The position numbers and the translations under genes were made by a program. Shown one piece after another: positions 41,956-53,927 of a stretch of DNA of 64,000 nucleotides. Below the pieces are notes generated by a model that did not search any database, was not told the DNA's origin, and saw only the letters and a list, made by a program, of their open reading frames with translations. How positions within the stretch are numbered: position 1 is the first letter of the stretch; each line of letters begins with the position of its first letter. Source of the stretch: Escherichia coli (lineage in GTDB: Bacteria; Pseudomonadota; Gammaproteobacteria; Enterobacterales; Enterobacteriaceae); assembly GCF_048403405.1 (NCBI RefSeq), contig NZ_CP183129.1; one strand, written 5' to 3'.

Positions 41956-42031
41956 GCCGGATAAGGCGCTCGCGCCGCATCCGGCAACGATGCCGACTGC
42001 CTGATGCGACGCTGACCGCGTCTTATCAGGC
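41956..42031. repeat. BIME (two inverted REP elements) between yjdM and yjdN
   Basis: gccggataaggcgctcgcgccgcatccggc and gcctgatgcgacgctgaccgcgtcttatcaggc REP-family palindromes. Confidence 0.6.
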
Positions 42032-42096
42032 TTCCCTCTCATCTGTATAAATTTCGAACTACACTTAAGTGGCTTCTCTTAACTGAGGTCACCATC

Positions 42097-42540
42097 ATGC
42101 CGTTAAGTCCCTACCTCTCTTTTGCCGGTAACTGTGCCGACGCAATTGCTTATTATCAACGTACGTTGGGCGCTGAACTGCTCTATAAAATCAGCTTCGG
42201 CGAAATGCCAAAATCAGCGCAGGACAGCGCCGAGAACTGCCCTTCCGGAATGCAATTTCCCGATACCGCCATCGCCCACGCCAATGTGCGCATTGCCGGA
42301 AGCGATATCATGATGAGCGATGCTATACCGTCAGGAAAAGCCAGCTACTCCGGCTTTACGCTGGTGCTCGATTCGCAACAGGTCGAAGAAGGAAAACGCT
42401 GGTTTGACAACCTTGCCGCTAACGGAAAAATCGAAATGGCCTGGCAGGAAACTTTCTGGGCGCATGGCTTCGGCAAAGTCACCGATAAATTTGGCGTACC
42501 GTGGATGATTAATGTCGTCAAACAACAACCAACGCACTAA
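42097..42540 (+). CDS. yjdN: glyoxalase/VOC-family protein YjdN (PhnB), 147 aa
   Basis: ORF MPLSPYLSFAGNCADAIAYYQRTLGAELLYKISFGEM...; matches recalled YjdN. Confidence 0.88.
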   Translation: MPLSPYLSFAGNCADAIAYYQRTLGAELLYKISFGEMPKSAQDSAENCPSGMQFPDTAIAHANVRIAGSDIMMSDAIPSGKASYSGFTLVLDSQQVEEGKRWFDNLAANGKIEMAWQETFWAHGFGKVTDKFGVPWMINVVKQQPTH

Positions 42541-42595
42541 CCCGCCGGGAGGGCCGCCCTCCCGCACTGTCATCGAAATCTCGTTAACTCTTCAT

Positions 42596-42638
42596 CCGTT
42601 AGTCACTTTTAGTTAACAAAATCGTCACAATAATCCGC
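42596..42638 (+). promoter_or_regulatory. candidate Pho box (PhoB binding) in the phnC promoter
   Basis: ccgttagtcacttttagttaacaaaatcgtcacaataa contains GTCAC-containing direct repeats at roughly 11-bp spacing, ending about 35 bp upstream of phnC; resembles the Pho-box consensus. Confidence 0.45.
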
Positions 42639-42672
42639 CACGATGGAGCCACTTTTTTAGGGAGGCTGCATC

Positions 42673-43461
42673 ATGCAAACGATTATCCGTGTCGAGAAGC
42701 TCGCCAAAACCTTCAATCAGCATCAGGCGCTGCACGCGGTTGATCTGAACATTCATCACGGTGAAATGGTGGCTCTGCTTGGGCCGTCGGGTTCCGGCAA
42801 ATCCACCCTTTTACGTCACTTAAGCGGTTTGATTACCGGCGATAAATCTGCCGGTAGCCATATCGAGCTGCTGGGCCGCACAGTCCAGCGCGAAGGCCGC
42901 CTGGCCCGCGATATCCGCAAAAGCCGCGCCAACACCGGCTACATCTTCCAACAATTCAACCTGGTGAATCGCCTGAGCGTACTGGAGAACGTGCTGATTG
43001 GCGCGCTCGGCAGCACGCCATTCTGGCGCACCTGTTTTAGCTACTTCACTCGCGAGCAGAAACAGCGCGCGTTACAGGCGCTAACCCGCGTTGGCATGGT
43101 GCACTTTGCCCATCAGCGCGTTTCCACCCTCTCCGGCGGACAGCAGCAGCGTGTGGCGATTGCCCGCGCGCTGATGCAGCAGGCGAAGGTGATTCTGGCG
43201 GACGAACCCATCGCCTCGCTGGACCCGGAATCAGCGCGCATCGTGATGGACACCCTGCGCGACATCAACCAGAACGACGGCATTACCGTGGTCGTCACGC
43301 TGCATCAGGTGGATTACGCCCTGCGCTACTGCGAACGCATCGTCGCCCTGCGCCAGGGGCACGTCTTCTACGACGGCAGCAGCCAACAGTTTGATAACGA
43401 ACGCTTTGATCATCTCTATCGCAGCATCAACCGCGTCGAAGAGAACGCGAAAGCTGCCTGA
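42673..43461 (+). CDS. phnC: phosphonate ABC transporter ATP-binding protein PhnC, 262 aa
   Basis: Walker [13 protein letters not shown] signature LSGGQQQRV, Walker B ILADEP; matches recalled PhnC. Confidence 0.95.
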
Positions 43462-43485
43462 CATCCCCATCATTGAGGAAAACGA

Positions 43486-44502
43486 ATGAACGCTAAGATA
43501 ATTGCCTCGCTGGCCTTCACCAGCATGTTCAGCCTCAGCACCCTGTTAAGCCCGGCGCACGCCGAAGAGCAGGAAAAGGCGCTGAATTTCGGCATTATTT
43601 CAACGGAATCACAGCAAAACCTGAAACCGCAATGGACGCCGTTCTTACGGGATATGGAGAAGAAGCTGGGCGTAAAGGTCAACGCCTTCTTTGCCCCGGA
43701 CTACGCGGGCATTATCCAGGGGATGCGCTTCAATAAAGTGGATATCGCCTGGTACGGCAACCTGTCGGCGATGGAAGCGGTGGATCGCGCCAACGGTCAG
43801 GTCTTCGCCCAGACGGTCGCGGCGGATGGATCGCCAGGTTACTGGAGCGTGTTGATCGTCAACAAAGACAGCCCGATCAACAACCTGAACGATCTGCTGG
43901 CGAAGCGGAAAGATCTCACCTTCGGTAATGGCGATCCTAACTCCACCTCTGGCTTCCTCGTCCCCGGTTACTACGTCTTCGCCAAAAACAATATCTCCGC
44001 CAGCGACTTCAAGCGCACCGTCAATGCCGGGCATGAAACCAACGCGCTGGCCGTCGCCAACAAGCAGGTGGATGTGGCGACCAACAACACCGAGAACCTC
44101 GACAAGCTGAAAACCTCCGCACCGGAGAAGCTCAAAGAGCTGAAAGTGATCTGGAAATCGCCGCTGATTCCAGGCGATCCGATCGTCTGGCGCAAAAATC
44201 TGTCCGAAACCACCAAAGACAAGATCTACGACTTCTTTATGAATTACGGCAAAACGCCGGAAGAGAAAGCGGTGCTGGAACGCCTGGGCTGGGCCCCGTT
44301 CCGCGCCTCCAGCGACCTGCAACTGGTACCGATTCGCCAGCTCGCGCTGTTTAAAGAGATGCAGGGCGTGAAAAGCAATAAAGGGCTGAATGAGCAGGAC
44401 AAGCTGGCGAAAACCACCGCGATTCAGGCGCAGCTGGATGACCTGGACCGCCTGAACAACGCGTTAAGCGCGATGAGTTCGGTAAGTAAAGCGGTGCAGT
44501 AA
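43486..44502 (+). CDS. phnD: phosphonate ABC transporter periplasmic binding protein PhnD, 338 aa
   Basis: Signal peptide MNAKIIASLAFTSMFSLSTLLSPAHA; matches recalled PhnD. Confidence 0.95.
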   Translation: MNAKIIASLAFTSMFSLSTLLSPAHAEEQEKALNFGIISTESQQNLKPQWTPFLRDMEKKLGVKVNAFFAPDYAGIIQGMRFNKVDIAWYGNLSAMEAVDRANGQVFAQTVAADGSPGYWSVLIVNKDSPINNLNDLLAKRKDLTFGNGDPNSTSGFLVPGYYVFAKNNISASDFKRTVNAGHETNALAVANKQVDVATNNTENLDKLKTSAPEKLKELKVIWKSPLIPGDPIVWRKNLSETTKDKIYDFFMNYGKTPEEKAVLERLGWAPFRASSDLQLVPIRQLALFKEMQGVKSNKGLNEQDKLAKTTAIQAQLDDLDRLNNALSAMSSVSKAVQ

Positions 44503-44516
44503 TGTGCTCGATCGAT

Positions 44517-44604
44517 CCCCTCTCCCTTGAGGGAGAGGGTTAGGGTGAGGGGGAAATGCGCACGCTGATGCCCTCACCCCGGCCCTCTCCCACAGGGAGA
44601 GGGA
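44517..44604. repeat. nested GC-rich palindromic intergenic repeat between phnD and phnE
   Basis: Two CCCTCTCCC-N4-GGGAGAGGG hairpins flanking complementary GGGTGAGGG / CCCTCACCC segments; resembles small E. coli intergenic repeat families. Confidence 0.55.
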
Positions 44605-44627
44605 GAAAACATTAAACGGAGCAATAT

Positions 44628-45407
44628 ATGCAAACCATCACCATCGCCCCACCCAAGCGCAGCTGGTTCTCGCTTCTGAGCTGGGCCATTGTACTCGCCG
44701 TGCTGGTCGTCTCGTGGCAGGGCGCGGAAATGGCCCCGCTCACGCTGATCAAAGACGGCGGCAACATGGCAACCTTCGCCGCCGACTTCTTCCCGCCCGA
44801 TTTCAGCCAGTGGCAGGATTACCTCACCGAAATGGCCGTCACGCTGCAAATCGCCGTCTGGGGCACCGCGCTGGCGGTGGTTCTCTCCATCCCCTTTGGC
44901 CTGATGAGCGCCGAAAACCTGGTGCCGTGGTGGGTTTACCAACCCGTTCGCCGCCTGATGGACGCCTGCCGCGCCATTAACGAGATGGTCTTCGCCATGC
45001 TGTTCGTGGTCGCCGTCGGTCTCGGTCCGTTCGCTGGCGTACTGGCGCTGTTTATCCACACCACCGGCGTGCTCTCCAAACTGCTTTCCGAAGCGGTAGA
45101 AGCAATTGAACCCGGCCCGGTGGAAGGTATTCGCGCCACCGGTGCCAACAAGCTGGAAGAGATTCTCTACGGCGTGCTGCCACAGGTGATGCCGCTGCTG
45201 ATCTCCTACTCCCTCTATCGCTTCGAATCCAACGTCCGCTCGGCGACCGTCGTCGGCATGGTCGGCGCGGGCGGGATCGGCGTCACCCTGTGGGAAGCGA
45301 TTCGCGGTTTCCAGTTCCAGCAAACCTGCGCCCTGATGGTGCTGATTATCGTCACGGTCAGCCTGCTGGATTTCCTCTCTCAACGGTTGCGTAAGCACTT
45401 TATCTGA
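44628..45407 (+). CDS. phnE: phosphonate ABC transporter permease PhnE, intact 259-codon ORF
   Basis: Uninterrupted [38 protein letters not shown]... with multiple TM segments and ABC-permease EAA-like loop. Confidence 0.9.
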
Positions 45408-45427
45408 TAAGCGAGGCATTGATATCT

Positions 45428-46153
45428 ATGCACTTGTCTACACATCCGACCAGCTACCCAACACGCTATCAGGAGATAGCCGCAAAACTTGAGCAGGAGC
45501 TTCGTCAACACTACCGCTGCGGCGACTATCTTCCCGCCGAGCAGCAACTGGCGGCGCGCTTTGAGGTGAACCGCCACACCCTGCGCCGCGCCATCGACCA
45601 ACTGGTGGAAAAAGGCTGGGTACAGCGCCGTCAGGGCGTCGGCGTGCTGGTGCTGATGCGCCCGTTCGATTACCCGCTCAACGCCCAGGCGCGTTTTAGC
45701 CAGAACCTGCTGGATCAGGGCAGCCATCCCACCAGCGAAAAACTGCTGTCTGTGCTGCGCCCGGCCTCCGGTCACGTCGCTGACGCGCTGGGGATAACCG
45801 AGGGCGAGAACGTTATCCACCTGCGCACCCTGCGTCGGGTCAACGGCGTCGCGCTCTGTTTAATCGACCACTACTTTGCGGACCTCACCCTCTGGCCGAC
45901 GCTGCAACGCTTCGACAGCGGCTCGCTGCACGATTTTCTGCGCGAGCAAACGGGGATTGCGCTGCGCCGCAGCCAGACGCGGATCAGCGCCCGCCGCGCC
46001 CAGGCCAAAGAGTGCCAGCGTCTTGAAATCCCGAATATGTCGCCGCTGCTGTGCGTGCGCACCCTTAACCACCGTGACGGTGAAAGCAGCCCGGCGGAGT
46101 ACTCCGTCAGCCTGACGCGCGCCGACATGATTGAATTCACTATGGAGCACTGA
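45428..46153 (+). CDS. phnF: GntR-family repressor PhnF, 241 aa
   Basis: ATG at 45428 (MHLSTHPTSYPTRYQEIAAKLEQ) with N-terminal GntR HTH; ORF track begins at TTG 45419. Confidence 0.92.
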   Translation: MHLSTHPTSYPTRYQEIAAKLEQELRQHYRCGDYLPAEQQLAARFEVNRHTLRRAIDQLVEKGWVQRRQGVGVLVLMRPFDYPLNAQARFSQNLLDQGSHPTSEKLLSVLRPASGHVADALGITEGENVIHLRTLRRVNGVALCLIDHYFADLTLWPTLQRFDSGSLHDFLREQTGIALRRSQTRISARRAQAKECQRLEIPNMSPLLCVRTLNHRDGESSPAEYSVSLTRADMIEFTMEH

Positions 46154-46606
46154 ATGCACGCAGATACCGCGACCCGCCAGCACTGGATGTCCGTGCTGGC
46201 ACACAGCCAACCGGCTGAACTGGCAGCCCGCCTGAAGGCGCTGAACATCACTGCCGACTATGAAGTAATCCGCGCCGCTGAAACCGGCCTGGTGCAGATT
46301 CAGGCGCGGATGGGTGGCACCGGCGAACGCTTTTTTGCTGGCGACGCCACGCTCACCCGCGCCGCCATACGCCTGACTGACGGCACGCTCGGCTACAGCT
46401 GGGTGCTGGGGCGCGACAAACAGCACGCCGAACGCTGCGCGCTGATCGACGCGCTGATGCAGCAAACCCGCCATTTTCAAAACTTATCAGAAACTCTTAT
46501 TGCCCCGCTGAACGCTGACCGTATGGCACGCATTGCCGCACGCCAGGCCGAAGTAAACGCCAGCCGGGTCGACTTCTTTACGATGGTTCGCGGAGACAAC
46601 GCATGA
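46154..46606 (+). CDS. phnG: C-P lyase core complex subunit PhnG, 150 aa
   Basis: ORF and operon position; matches recalled PhnG. Confidence 0.93.
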
Positions 46607-47187
46607 CCCTGGAAACCGCTTTTATGCTTCCCGTGCAGGATTCCCAGCACAGTTTTCGTCGCCTGTTAAAGGCCATGAGCGAGCCGGGCGTGATTGTCGC
46701 CCTGCATCAGCTCAAACGCGGCTGGCAGCCGCTGAATATCGCCACCACCAGCGTGCTGCTGACGCTGGCCGATAACGACACGCCGGTGTGGCTTTCTGCG
46801 CCATTAAGTAACGATATCGTCAGCCAGAGCCTGCGTTTTCATACCAACGCGCCGCTGGTCAATCAGCCGGAACTGGCGACCTTCGCGGTAACGGATGAGG
46901 CGATTTCCAGCGAACAGCTCAACGCTCTTTCCAGCGGCACCGCTGTTGCGCCGGAAGCGGGCGCGACGCTGATTTTACAGGTCGTCAGCCTGAGCGGCGG
47001 GCGCATGCTGCGCCTTACTGGCGCGGGTATTGCCGAAGAACGAATGATCGCTCCGCAGCTGCCGGAGTGCATTCTGCACGAACTCACCGAGCGCCCGCAC
47101 CCGTTCCCGCTCGGCATCGACCTGATCCTGACCTGCGGCGAGCGGCTGCTGGCTATCCCGCGAACCACTCATGTGGAGGTGTGCTGA
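46603..47187 (+). CDS. phnH: C-P lyase core complex subunit PhnH, 194 aa
   Basis: ATGA overlap with phnG; matches recalled PhnH. Confidence 0.93.
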
Positions 47188-48251
47188 TGTACGTTGCCGT
47201 GAAAGGGGGCGAGAAGGCGATCGACGCCGCCCACGCCCTGCAAGAGAGCCGACGCCGGGGCAATACCGATTTGCCTGAACTGAGCGTCGCCCAGATTGAA
47301 CAGCAGCTTAATCTTGCAGTAGATCGCGTGATGACCGAAGGCGGCATTGCCGACCGCGAACTGGCGGCGCTGGCGCTGAAACAGGCCAGCGGCGATAACG
47401 TCGAAGCGATTTTCCTGCTACGCGCCTACCGCACCACGCTGGCGAAGCTCGCGGTAAGCGAGCCGCTCGACACCACGGAGATGCGTCTCGAACGGCGTAT
47501 TTCAGCGGTTTATAAAGACATTCCCGGCGGCCAACTGCTTGGCCCAACCTACGACTACACCCATCGCCTGCTCGATTTCACCCTGCTGGCAAACGGCGAA
47601 GCGCCGACGCTGACCACCGCCGACAGCGAACAACAGCCGTCGCCGCACGTTTTCAGCCTGCTGGCGCGTCAGGGGCTGGCGAAGTTTGAAGAAGATAGCG
47701 GCGCACAGCCGGACGACATCACCCGCACGCCGCCGGTTTACCCCTGCTCACGCTCCTCCCGCCTGCAACAATTAATGCGCGGCGACGAAGGCTATTTGCT
47801 GGCGCTGGCCTACTCCACCCAGCGTGGTTACGGACGCAATCATCCGTTCGCAGGCGAAATCCGCAGCGGCTATATCCACGTGTCGATTGTGCCGGAAGAG
47901 CTGGGATTTGCGGTGAACGTCGGCGAACTGCTGATGACCGAATGTGAAATGGTCAACGGTTTTATCGACCCGCCGGATGAGCCGCCGCACTTCACGCGCG
48001 GCTACGGGCTGGTGTTCGGCATGAGCGAGCGCAAAGCGATGGCGATGGCGCTGGTTGACCGCGCTCTACAAGCCCCGGAGTACGGCGAGCACGCGACAGG
48101 CCCGGCGCAGGATGAAGAGTTCGTGCTGGCGCATGCCGACAACGTCGAAGCCGCAGGCTTTGTCTCGCACCTTAAACTCCCGCACTACGTCGATTTCCAG
48201 GCCGAACTGGAGCTACTCAAACGTCTGCAACAGGAGCAGAACCATGGCTAA
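47187..48251 (+). CDS. phnI: C-P lyase core complex subunit PhnI, 354 aa
   Basis: ATG at 47187 overlapping the phnH stop ([19 protein letters not shown]); ORF track starts at an upstream in-frame codon. Confidence 0.92.
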   Translation: MYVAVKGGEKAIDAAHALQESRRRGNTDLPELSVAQIEQQLNLAVDRVMTEGGIADRELAALALKQASGDNVEAIFLLRAYRTTLAKLAVSEPLDTTEMRLERRISAVYKDIPGGQLLGPTYDYTHRLLDFTLLANGEAPTLTTADSEQQPSPHVFSLLARQGLAKFEEDSGAQPDDITRTPPVYPCSRSSRLQQLMRGDEGYLLALAYSTQRGYGRNHPFAGEIRSGYIHVSIVPEELGFAVNVGELLMTECEMVNGFIDPPDEPPHFTRGYGLVFGMSERKAMAMALVDRALQAPEYGEHATGPAQDEEFVLAHADNVEAAGFVSHLKLPHYVDFQAELELLKRLQQEQNHG

Positions 48252-49089
48252 TCTGAGCGGCTACAACTTTGCCTACCTCGACGAGCAGACCAAACGCATG
48301 ATCCGCCGCGCCATCTTAAAAGCGGTGGCGATCCCCGGTTATCAGGTGCCGTTTGGCGGGCGCGAGATGCCGATGCCGTACGGCTGGGGAACTGGTGGTA
48401 TCCAGCTTACCGCCAGCGTGATTGGCGAAAGCGACGTGTTGAAGGTGATTGACCAGGGTGCGGATGACACCACCAACGCCGTGTCGATTCGCAACTTCTT
48501 TAAGCGCGTGACCGGGGTAAACACCACTGAACGTACGGACGATGCGACGCTTATCCAGACGCGTCACCGCATCCCCGAAACGCCGCTGACTGAAGATCAG
48601 ATCATTATCTTCCAGGTGCCAATCCCGGAACCGCTGCGCTTTATCGAGCCGCGCGAAACGGAGACCCGCACTATGCACGCGCTGGAGGAGTACGGCGTGA
48701 TGCAGGTGAAACTGTATGAAGATATCGCCCGCTTCGGTCATATCGCCACCACTTATGCCTATCCGGTGAAGGTGAACGGGCGCTACGTGATGGACCCGTC
48801 GCCGATCCCGAAATTCGATAACCCGAAAATGGACATGATGCCCGCCCTGCAGCTGTTCGGCGCAGGGCGCGAGAAGCGCATCTATGCGGTGCCGCCGTTT
48901 ACCCGCGTGGAAAGCCTCGATTTCGACGATCACCCGTTCACCGTTCAGCAGTGGAATGAGCCATGCGCCATCTGCGGATCGACCCACAGCTATCTTGATG
49001 AAGTGGTGCTGGATGACGCCGGAAACCGCATGTTTGTCTGCTCCGATACCGATTATTGCCGCCAACAGAGCGAGGCAAAAAACCAATGA
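48244..49089 (+). CDS. phnJ: C-P lyase catalytic subunit PhnJ (radical SAM-related, 4-Cys cluster), 281 aa
   Basis: ATG at 48244 (MANLSGYNFAYLDEQTKRMIRRAILKA); C-terminal CxxC...C...C cysteines (CAICGS...CSDTDYC). Confidence 0.93.
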   Translation: MANLSGYNFAYLDEQTKRMIRRAILKAVAIPGYQVPFGGREMPMPYGWGTGGIQLTASVIGESDVLKVIDQGADDTTNAVSIRNFFKRVTGVNTTERTDDATLIQTRHRIPETPLTEDQIIIFQVPIPEPLRFIEPRETETRTMHALEEYGVMQVKLYEDIARFGHIATTYAYPVKVNGRYVMDPSPIPKFDNPKMDMMPALQLFGAGREKRIYAVPPFTRVESLDFDDHPFTVQQWNEPCAICGSTHSYLDEVVLDDAGNRMFVCSDTDYCRQQSEAKNQ

Positions 49090-52747: not shown

Positions 52748-53506
52748 ATGAGCCTGACCCTCACACTTACTGGCACTGGCGGCGCACAGGGCGTTCCCGC
52801 ATGGGGCTGTGAGTGCGCGGCCTGCGCCAGAGCGCGGCGCTCATCGCAGTATCGCCGCCAGCCATGCAGCGGCGTCGTGAAGTTTAACGACGCGATCACC
52901 CTGATCGACGCCGGGCTGCACGATCTCGCCGATCGCTGGTCGCCCGGATCGTTCCAGCAGTTTTTGCTGACGCACTACCATATGGATCACGTGCAGGGGC
53001 TGTTTCCGCTGCGCTGGGGCGTGGGCGATTCGATCCCGATCTACGGCCCGCCGGATGAACAGGGCTGCGACGATCTGTTTAAACATCCGGGCCTGCTTGA
53101 TTTCAGCCACACGATGGAACCGTTTGTGGTGTTTGATTTACAGGGGTTACAGGTCACGCCCCTGCCGCTCAACCACTCAAAACTGACCTTCGGTTATCTG
53201 CTGGAAACGGCACACAGCCTGGTGGCGTGGCTGTCTGACACCGCTGGCTTGCCGGAAAAAACGCTGAAATTTTTACGCAATAATCAGCCGCAGGTAATGG
53301 TGATTGATTGCAGCCATCCGCCGCGTGCGGATGCGCCGCGTAATCACTGTGATTTAAACACCGTGCTGGCGCTGAATGAGGTTATCCGCTCGCCACGGGT
53401 GATTCTGACGCATATCAGCCACCAGTTTGATGCGTGGCTGATGGAAAACGCACTGCCGTCGGGGTTTGAGGCGGGGTTTGATGGGATGGAGATTGGGGTG
53501 GCGTGA
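52748..53506 (+). CDS. phnP: phosphodiesterase PhnP (metallo-beta-lactamase fold), 252 aa
   Basis: ATG at 52748 ([23 protein letters not shown]); HxHxDH-type motif THYHMDH; ORF track starts upstream in frame. Confidence 0.92.
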
Positions 53507-53560
53507 TGGGATGGAGATTGGGGTGGCGTGATGGGATGGAGATTGGGGTGGCGTGATGGG
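53481..53560. repeat. tandem direct repeat, about 3.2 copies of a 25-bp unit spanning the phnP stop codon
   Basis: Unit atgggatggagattggggtggcgtg at 53481-53505, 53506-53530 and 53531-53555, then partial atggg; copy 1 encodes the phnP C-terminus ...DGMEIGVA*. Confidence 0.9.
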
Positions 53561-53597
53561 GAGAATGTGCTCGCTGGCCCCCTCACCCGAGCCTACC

Positions 53598-53927
53598 TCA
53601 TCGCCCATACTCATCTTCCATTCTCCGCTCTTCATCCTCCAGTTGCCGACGCTCCTGATCAAGCTGGCGCTGGCGATCGTCCAGCTGCCTGCGGCGATCT
53701 TCAAACTGGCGGCGGCGGTCGTCATATTGTCTGCGCCGATCGTCGCTCACTTCACGCTGCCAGCCGTCGTCGTGCGAATCTTCATAGTCTCGCCCACGGT
53801 CAGGGTTATAAGCATCGTTAATCGCCTGCTGAATATTGCCAATGGTGTCGTCGATAATATCGGCCTGGGCCGGAACGGTGGACAGCGTGAGCAGGGTGAA
53901 TAAAAGAAATAGCGGAAAGCGTTTCAT
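53598..53927 (-). CDS. yjdP: secreted charged repeat protein YjdP, 109 aa
   Basis: Signal peptide MKRFPLFLLFTLLTLSTVPAQA; C-terminal Arg/Asp/Gln-rich heptad repeats; matches recalled YjdP. Confidence 0.85.
   Translation of the reverse strand: MKRFPLFLLFTLLTLSTVPAQADIIDDTIGNIQQAINDAYNPDRGRDYEDSHDDGWQREVSDDRRRQYDDRRRQFEDRRRQLDDRQRQLDQERRQLEDEERRMEDEYGR

Follow-up and report, generated by a model that had tools for sequence, protein, structure and literature searches.

The window, that is the whole 64,000-nucleotide stretch of Escherichia coli DNA that was analysed, carries phnC, phnD, phnE, phnF and the genes that follow them on its plus strand, according to the list of open reading frames. 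A single Pho-regulated promoter upstream of phnC drives the phnC-P operon. The phnD stop codon (TAA, 44500-44502) and the phnE start codon (ATG at 44628) are separated by a spacer of 125 nt, which holds a nested, GC-rich palindrome (Table 1). Strain TUM14771 is 100% identical to the window. Over the phn region (42000-48800), the identity to K-12 and to most E. coli is about 96%, and only 6 of 5426 E. coli genomes reach at least 99% over positions 44000-45000; this low identity points to a divergent lineage or to an imported segment.

Table 1. Features of the phnD-phnE spacer and of related sites (positions in the window)
Feature	Position	Strand	Basis or remark
phnD, phosphonate ABC transporter binding protein	43486..44502	+	ORF; phnD annotation in matching genomes
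Whole BoxC composite: left flank + unit A + centre + inverted unit B + right flank	44503..44610	.	about 108 nt recurs at the non-homologous K-12 hrpB-mrcB spacer
Left flank module TGTGCTCGATCGAT, common to other BoxC composites	44503..44516	+	sequence comparison
BoxC/TM_ECO unit type A, CCCTCTCCC-TTGA-GGGAGAGGG-TTA-GGGTGAGGGG	44518..44552	+	K-12 and E24377A matches
HPG1 G4 motif inside the type A unit	44531..44551	+	21-mer from Kaplan 2016
Central spacer GAAATGCGCACGCTGAT, apical loop region of the long hairpin	44553..44569	.	conserved in other-genus copies
BoxC/TM_ECO unit type B, minus-strand reading CCCTCTCCCTGTGGGAGAGGGCCGGGGTGAGGGC; holds the HPG2 motif	44570..44603	-	K-12 and E24377A matches
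Composite right flank AGAAAAC	44604..44610	+	sequence comparison
phnE Shine-Dalgarno sequence (SD) GGAG	44618..44621	+	14 nt 3' of hairpin foot, 6 nt 5' of ATG 44628
phnE permease, intact in the window	44628..45407	+	ORF; matching genomes; K-12 alignment
Site of the K-12 phnE 8-bp (GCTGGCGT) slippage insertion	45033..45050	+	pairwise alignment with K-12
Degenerate trace of another BoxC unit (K-12 TM_ECO no. 22, phnP-yjdP spacer)	53562..53590	-	K-12 comparison

The first hairpin of the palindrome is formed by CCCTCTCCC (44518-44526), a TTGA loop and GGGAGAGGG (44531-44539). It is followed by TTA, by GGGTGAGGG (44543-44551), by a centre of 17-19 nt and by CCCTCACCC (44571-44579), after which come CGG and a second hairpin, with CCCTCTCCC (44583-44591) and GGGAGAGGG (44595-44603) on the two sides of an ACA loop. 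A preliminary description of the sequence had noted two near-identical hairpins, each with a loop of four nucleotides, around complementary segments. Both 9-bp GC hairpins are real, and the complementary segments GGGTGAGGG and CCCTCACCC between them can be read directly in the sequence; the second loop, however, has 3 nt, and the pattern with a four-nucleotide loop matches once. The nested palindromic arrangement is far beyond chance. The window contains four copies of GGGAGAGGG (0.24 expected) and three of GGGTGAGGG (0.18 expected), none of 100 shuffled sequences had any match to the pattern with the four-nucleotide loop, and a repeat search returned nested inverted repeats that include arms of 27 nt at 44525-44551 and 44571-44597. 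The repeated unit also exceeds the interval first reported (44517-44604), its real extent being 44503-44610, with the first base immediately 3' of the phnD stop codon.

A full-text search with two 9-mers led to the study of Holder et al. (2015; NAR 43:10126, PMC4666352), in which the motif, named first BoxC and then PIT for potential intrastrand triplex (Hoyne & Maher), is called TM_ECO and in which Table 1 lists 23 units in K-12. Both units of the window have the three-block BoxC layout, CCCTCNCCC, a short loop, GGGNGAGGG, a 3-nt loop and GGGTGAGGG, over 34-37 nt. The type B unit has exactly the sequence of no. 106 of strain E24377A and of K-12 TM_ECO nos. 1 and 4; the type A unit matches E24377A no. 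107 throughout and departs from K-12 TM_ECO no. 2 at its final base alone. A second loop TTA defines type A and CCG type B, palindromic sites always pair one A with one B, and such an inverted pair is present at five K-12 sites (Holder et al., 2015; PMC4666352). In the window the second loops are TTA (44540-44542) and CGG (44580-44582), the latter being CCG on the minus strand. By these matches, the copy is in the 'palindromic' configuration, with type A on the plus strand and type B on the minus strand inside a composite of about 108 bp. The K-12 hrpB-mrcB pair (TM_ECO 1+2) aligns with this composite over about 108 nt, both flanks included, and the two copies have TGTGCTCGATCG(G/A)T and AGAAAAC in common. 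Compared feature by feature, the window element and BoxC/PIT/TM_ECO are alike in their three-block units, in the inverted A+B pairing, in the intergenic site (here the phnD-phnE spacer), in multi-copy dispersal, in the hrpB-mrcB flanks and in 'palindrome effect' deletions, and we found no defining difference. The phnD-phnE palindrome is thus almost certainly one copy of the enterobacterial dispersed repeat BoxC (PIT, TM_ECO, HPG1/HPG2 motif).

The locus itself is not new. Table S8 of Holder et al. (2015; PMC4666352) lists TM_ECO 106/107 of E24377A, with these exact sequences, at NC_009801 4655133-4655217. We found this interval to fall within the phnD-phnE spacer of E24377A, and the locus was therefore already catalogued. 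Petrillo et al. (2008; PMC2267715) also obtained BoxC as a family of stem-loops. What is added here is the census of alleles, the alternation with BIMEs and the occupancy of the spacer in both orientations across genera. A genome-wide search for other copies found them in abundance: a 97-nt query matched 63,436 places in 5279 of the 5426 complete E. coli genomes, the median genome having 13, and only 46 of the places were on plasmids, the rest being chromosomal. BoxC copies number 2 in CFT073, 27-30 in other E. coli and up to 143 in Enterobacter asburiae. Earlier work on BoxC/PIT reportedly includes Bergler 1992, Bachellier 1996/1999 and Hoyne & Maher 2000/2002. For annotation, a conspicuous GC-rich palindrome is explained as a routine BoxC repeat.

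Folded as RNA, positions 44500-44630 gave -72 kcal/mol, as compared with -41.9 ± 3.5 kcal/mol for shuffled sequences (z = -8.55), and none of 200 shuffles was as good. The preliminary description had suggested a cruciform or a multi-stem RNA, and an extremely stable RNA or cruciform-type structure is indeed predicted. The minimum free energy (MFE) form is one long imperfect hairpin, with a core of -67.1 kcal/mol, and the three-stem alternative (-54.7 kcal/mol) is 12 kcal/mol worse; in the model, the three-stem form is a plausible co-transcriptional intermediate. The opposite strand folds nearly as strongly (-64.7 kcal/mol). In the transcript, the predicted hairpin of about 38 bp starts 14 nt past the phnD stop codon and ends 14 nt before the phnE SD, and it is followed by AGAAAACAUUAAAC. 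A scan against Rfam at a permissive E-value returned only chance matches to miRNA hairpins, with at most 26.7 bits against gathering thresholds of 55-168, and neither a family for the BoxC element nor a cis-regulatory RNA or riboswitch was among the matches.

A very stable, GC-rich hairpin almost directly after a stop codon could act as an attenuator or an intrinsic terminator, so that fewer transcripts would read through into phnE-P. We consider this highly improbable, and the candidate was rejected as a Rho-independent terminator, being a GC hairpin with no U-run. There is no U-tract on either strand, and a scan of 44300-44800 on both strands found no terminator-like site. Read-through is required for the distal genes phnF-P, given the structure of the operon, and this also counts against a terminator. 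In the published tests of PIT elements with respect to promoter, terminator and RNA polymerase, as related by Holder et al. (2015; PMC4666352, citing Hoyne & Maher 2002), no activity and no effect were seen, including no terminator activity. Our promoter scan of the element likewise gave no match.

The other role suggested in the preliminary description was control of phnE translation, by a multi-stem RNA that tunes access to the ribosome-binding site (RBS). The closeness of the hairpin end to the SD is in keeping with this idea, as is a helix of 5 bp that is drawn in the MFE structure of every BoxC allele: UGCUC in the left flank (44505-44509) is complementary to GAGCA (44619-44623), which overlaps the SD, and in a partition function computed for a 260-nt context the SD bases have a low probability of being unpaired. 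The foot of the hairpin (44604) is nevertheless 14 nt upstream of the SD, and the RBS is not occluded by the element itself. This pairing of the SD is weak, bridges large loops and has other partners in a larger context; the UGCUC/GAGCA helix is weak and probably fortuitous, and the local SD pairings appear ambiguous and weak in the models and not attributable to the BoxC element. The distribution of the element does not help the idea either, since it is missing from most E. coli, whose SD region is the same, is inverted in other genera and is a generic repeat with copies at unrelated loci. Thus, a cis-acting role in phnE translation seems unlikely. Nor is the element a regulatory device specific to this locus: it is a dispersed BoxC/PIT/TM_ECO copy in whose place most E. 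coli have a BIME or a collapsed hairpin.

To count the alleles of the spacer, we searched the 5426 complete E. coli genomes with junction-specific queries. A K-12-type BIME spacer was present in 3745 genomes (69%), and a BoxC-derived spacer of any kind in 1505 (28%); the phnD junction with unit A was found in 455 (8%), and the full BoxC pair in 348 (6.4%). Remnants collapsed to a single hairpin account for about 1050 genomes (about 19%) and outnumber the full pair by about 3:1. In K-12 the spacer has no BoxC and contains a REP pair (BIME) instead, GTAGGTCGGATAAG...CTTATCCGGCCTAC; relative to the window, the replacement covers the whole spacer, beginning at the stop codon and ending about 12 nt short of the ATG. 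That 69% of the genomes carry a BIME and about 19% a collapsed hairpin implies that the BoxC pair is dispensable for phn function. In the alignment of the spacers, the BoxC centre GCTGATGCC resembles the K-12 BIME linker GTTGATGCC, probably by chance.

Three distinct and independent deletion alleles were seen in the spacer alignment, and in each the deletion ends lie in short direct repeats within the palindrome. In the A35 type, 64 nt are lost between the two copies of GGGAGAGGG and the TTGA loop is kept; in the EC9 type, 65 nt are lost between the two copies of CCCTCTCCC and the ACA loop is kept; in the JNEC-KY172 type, 58 nt are lost between two AGGG motifs. The BoxC pair is structurally unstable and is reduced to a single hairpin by recombination, or by slippage, between the direct repeats of 9 nt inside it. 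The indel hot spot within the spacer is therefore the BoxC element itself, and deletions of this sort were described before as a 'palindrome effect' (Holder et al., 2015; PMC4666352). The predicted hairpins fold with -23 to -24 kcal/mol in the remnants, with -50 kcal/mol in the BIME and with -72 kcal/mol in the full pair. That the remnants keep a hairpin need not reflect selection, because the deletion mechanism leaves one.

This instability is distinct from the one for which phnE is known. The preliminary description had tied the palindrome to the classic frameshift instability of phnE, a tempting but wrong connection that we have removed and that fails on both position and strain: the 8-bp GCTGGCGT insertion of K-12 maps to about 45032 of the window, inside the phnE ORF and 430 nt downstream of the element, and K-12 is a strain that does not have the element. 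At the slippage site of the window, an imperfect copy, ACTGGCGC, comes after GCTGGCGT; there is no insertion, and phnE is intact.

That a BIME takes the place of the BoxC pair in most E. coli bears on how the two families are related. Like the REP/BIME sequences of the K-12 allele and of malE-malF and hisJ-hisQ, BoxC here consists of short, GC-rich, imperfect palindromes in inverted pairs, is transcribed within an operon, typically after the gene for an ABC binding protein, and would form hairpins in the mRNA; at the phnD-phnE site the two are interchangeable. The REP-like organisation (units of about 35 nt, inverted pairs, an intergenic site after a binding-protein gene) and the alternation at this position with a genuine BIME could suggest that the element belongs to the REP/BIME family and is moved by a RAYT (TnpA-REP) transposase. 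Unlike REP/BIME, however, BoxC is of unrelated sequence and has a third G-block with triplex and G4 potential. The terminal GTAG/CTAC tetranucleotide and the similarity to the REP consensus, both present in the K-12 allele, are lacking from 44503-44610, and membership was rejected on these grounds. We know of no RAYT partner, and of no transposase association of any kind, for BoxC, and find this origin extremely unlikely. An mRNA-stabilising role has been shown for REP, not for BoxC. REPINs and MITE-like palindromic doublets offer a further comparison: they too are inverted doublets of a short repeat that form a long hairpin and are homogeneous across copies and species. At the junctions compared, the BoxC doublet shows no target-site duplication: the element is palindromic, and no duplicated flank is present at the window or the K-12 hrpB-mrcB junctions. 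To our knowledge, no transposase is associated with the BoxC doublet.

The third G-block brings in a possible role of DNA structure. Two 21-mers of the form G3N3G3N3G3N3G3, GGGAGAGGGTTAGGGTGAGGG and GGGAGAGGGCCGGGGTGAGGG, have exact matches on the plus and minus strands. The former is the HPG1 sequence of the HPG1/HPG2 'G-quadruplex-hairpin-duplex switch' and corresponds to 44531-44551; the HPG2 21-mer is the complement of 44571-44591 (Kaplan et al., 2016; PMC5100583). A non-B structure in single-stranded DNA, either an intrastrand triplex or a G4-hairpin-duplex switch, could conceivably affect replication, recombination or transcription. The units match sequences that form triplexes (CD/NMR) and G4s (CD) in vitro, and the phnD-phnE locus shows indel polymorphism, as published for TM_ECO loci. 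Against this, published DMS footprints taken in vivo gave no sign of the triplex, and in double-stranded DNA it is the duplex form that prevails. Here, unlike in lone HPG1 or HPG2, complementary C-blocks adjoin the G-blocks; G4-aware RNA folding retained the Watson-Crick hairpin (-67 kcal/mol, as compared with -13 kcal/mol for the isolated G-run), which is thus predicted to beat the G4 by more than 50 kcal/mol. Moreover, all the deletions observed are explained by direct-repeat slippage within the palindrome, for which a triplex is unneeded. We therefore regard a function of this kind as improbable.

We then looked at the spacer in other Enterobacteriaceae. A scan for PhnD in GTDB species representatives gave 80 loci, in 79 of which phnE lies downstream. 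At least one complete BoxC unit was present in the spacer of 29 species loci and only a BoxC-type hairpin in 8; the spacer held an E. coli-type REP/BIME in 22 and other strong palindromes, several of them clearly REP-like (e.g., in Cedecea and Dryocola), in 18, and was short (22-23 nt) and unstructured in the remaining 2. A strongly folding palindrome is therefore present in 77 of the 79 species. Among the 29 loci with complete units, 11 have tail-to-tail pairs like that of the window, 13 have head-to-head pairs, 1 has a tandem duplication of the composite and 4 have single units. BoxC material occurred in 37 of the 79 spacers as against three units in 684 kb of flanking sequence, an enrichment of more than 100-fold. 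The composite exists in both orientations, the Lelliottia and E. asburiae copies being its exact reverse complement, flanks included, and the collapse from a pair to a single hairpin has also taken place in Pseudocitrobacter and Enterobacter species.

The sequence of the element is conserved well beyond that of its neighbours. The 93-nt core (44516-44608) is identical at 87-91 of 93 positions in most Enterobacter, Lelliottia and Kluyvera copies (range 78-91 of 93 over 14 loci), whereas the adjacent 300 nt of phnD and phnE are only 77-86% identical in the genera compared. Conservation of the core above the neighbouring codons argues for re-delivery or sequence-specific homogenisation of the element, or else for a strong constraint on its primary sequence, the loops and the centre included. 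It may be that the spacer is a conserved landing or retention site in which unrelated palindrome families (BoxC, REP/BIME and others) are swapped across at least 10 enterobacterial genera, with the BoxC composite of 93 nt staying about 95% identical in either orientation beside genes of only about 80% identity, although we hold this to be somewhat doubtful. Were it so, there would be either a sequence-specific homing or gene-conversion machinery for BoxC or real selection for an intercistronic hairpin, and the latter would amount to a host function for BoxC that has eluded 30 years of work. In any event, conservation across genera and in both orientations sharpens the question of how BoxC is propagated and homogenised.

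Some of these loci have features of their own. Four copies from Enterobacter, Lelliottia and Kluyvera have a 93-nt core that is 94-98% identical to that of E. coli, in either orientation. Pseudocitrobacter faecalis has the whole BoxC composite as a tandem duplicate, in a spacer of 251 nt. Pseudocitrobacter is about 95% identical to E. coli downstream of phnE and about 89% upstream, a step that suggests horizontal exchange of the phn region. In Pseudenterobacter, Leclercia and Buttiauxella, three to four tandem units of about 40-45 nt lie between two outward-facing BoxC units, and these spacers, of 225-279 nt, fold with -112 to -143 kcal/mol.

Transcription of phnC-P passes through the element and would place an imperfect hairpin of about 38 bp, with a predicted -67 to -72 kcal/mol, between phnD and phnE in the message. 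In operons for ABC transporters, REP/BIME sequences after the gene for the binding protein (malE-malF, hisJ-hisQ) shield the upstream mRNA from 3' exonucleases and set the ratio of binding protein to permease. By analogy, the BoxC hairpin could be a barrier to 3'-to-5' exonucleases and possibly a substrate for RNase III, and the phnCD message would then be favoured over the distal message, with neither termination nor occlusion of the phnE RBS. Because REP/BIME hairpins act in this way in ABC operons, and because most E. coli have a BIME at precisely this position, a REP-like intercistronic hairpin is, we infer, the most likely consequence of the BoxC pair, albeit one that we propose tentatively. 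We counted in its favour the REP pair found at the same place in K-12 and in 69% of E. coli, the palindrome in 77 of 79 species together with a hairpin of -23 kcal/mol or stronger in every E. coli allele, and an element with neither terminator nor promoter. The two species with an unstructured spacer of 22-23 nt count against it. A bias of folding towards the sense strand was sought in 77 orthologous spacers and none was found, the antisense strand being the more stable in 50 of 76 with a median difference of 1.9 kcal/mol. The lack of such a bias and the occurrence of both orientations argue for a palindrome that matters as DNA over an RNA selected in the mRNA sense. These two points, together with the negative PIT tests as related in the literature, are the reason why we do not hold the REP-like role with more confidence. 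Our literature search found no later functional work on PIT/TM_ECO, and a search for a link between REP and tmRNA and for studies of the phnD/phnE REP gave nothing directly usable.

A neutral or selfish passenger is about as likely as the REP-like role. The BoxC pair would then have no effect on phn expression, sitting in a spacer that tolerates, or attracts, palindromes, and would be lost slowly by deletion. Such a passenger is readily reconciled with a full pair that is a minority allele (6%) outnumbered about 3:1 by its remnants, that is replaceable by a BIME, that occurs in both orientations and that folds with no bias for the sense strand. The negative functional tests of PIT elements, so far as they are summarised in Holder et al. 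(2015; PMC4666352), and the lack of association between TM_ECO and gene function in the same study point the same way. Less easily explained are the near-universal presence of a palindrome in this single spacer, whatever the genus (77 of 79), the more than 100-fold enrichment of BoxC in the spacer relative to the flanks and a BoxC core that is conserved far above the neighbouring codons. A triplex or G4 function of the DNA is less likely than either the REP-like role or the passenger. Overall, the account that combines BoxC identity, behaviour at the level of DNA and a putative REP-like role is likely to be the best explanation. The full pair, the three collapsed hairpins and the BIME form a natural allelic series in sequenced strains, and this series is a ready-made test of a REP-like action of BoxC on the operon mRNA.

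A further BoxC site lies downstream of phnP. The K-12 phnP-yjdP spacer (NC_000913.3 4314197-4314344) contains TM_ECO no. 22 and a second BoxC-like hairpin. In the window, CCCTCACCC at 53580-53588 marks a remnant of which only GGCCCCCTCACCC is left, and about 115 nt of the K-12 sequence are missing; this is a second BoxC-associated indel in the same operon region. Next to it, a perfect 25-bp tandem repeat, TGATGGGATGGAGATTGGGGTGGCG, runs across the phnP stop codon (53479-53560; 3.3 copies, 100% identical), where only one copy is found in K-12. Every copy of TGATGGGATGGAGATTGGGGTGGCG carries TGA, which leaves the PhnP protein as it is. On the opposite strand, in the yjdP region, an imperfect 21-bp tandem repeat (53672-53744; 3.5 copies, 75% matches) probably reflects a repeated peptide within YjdP.
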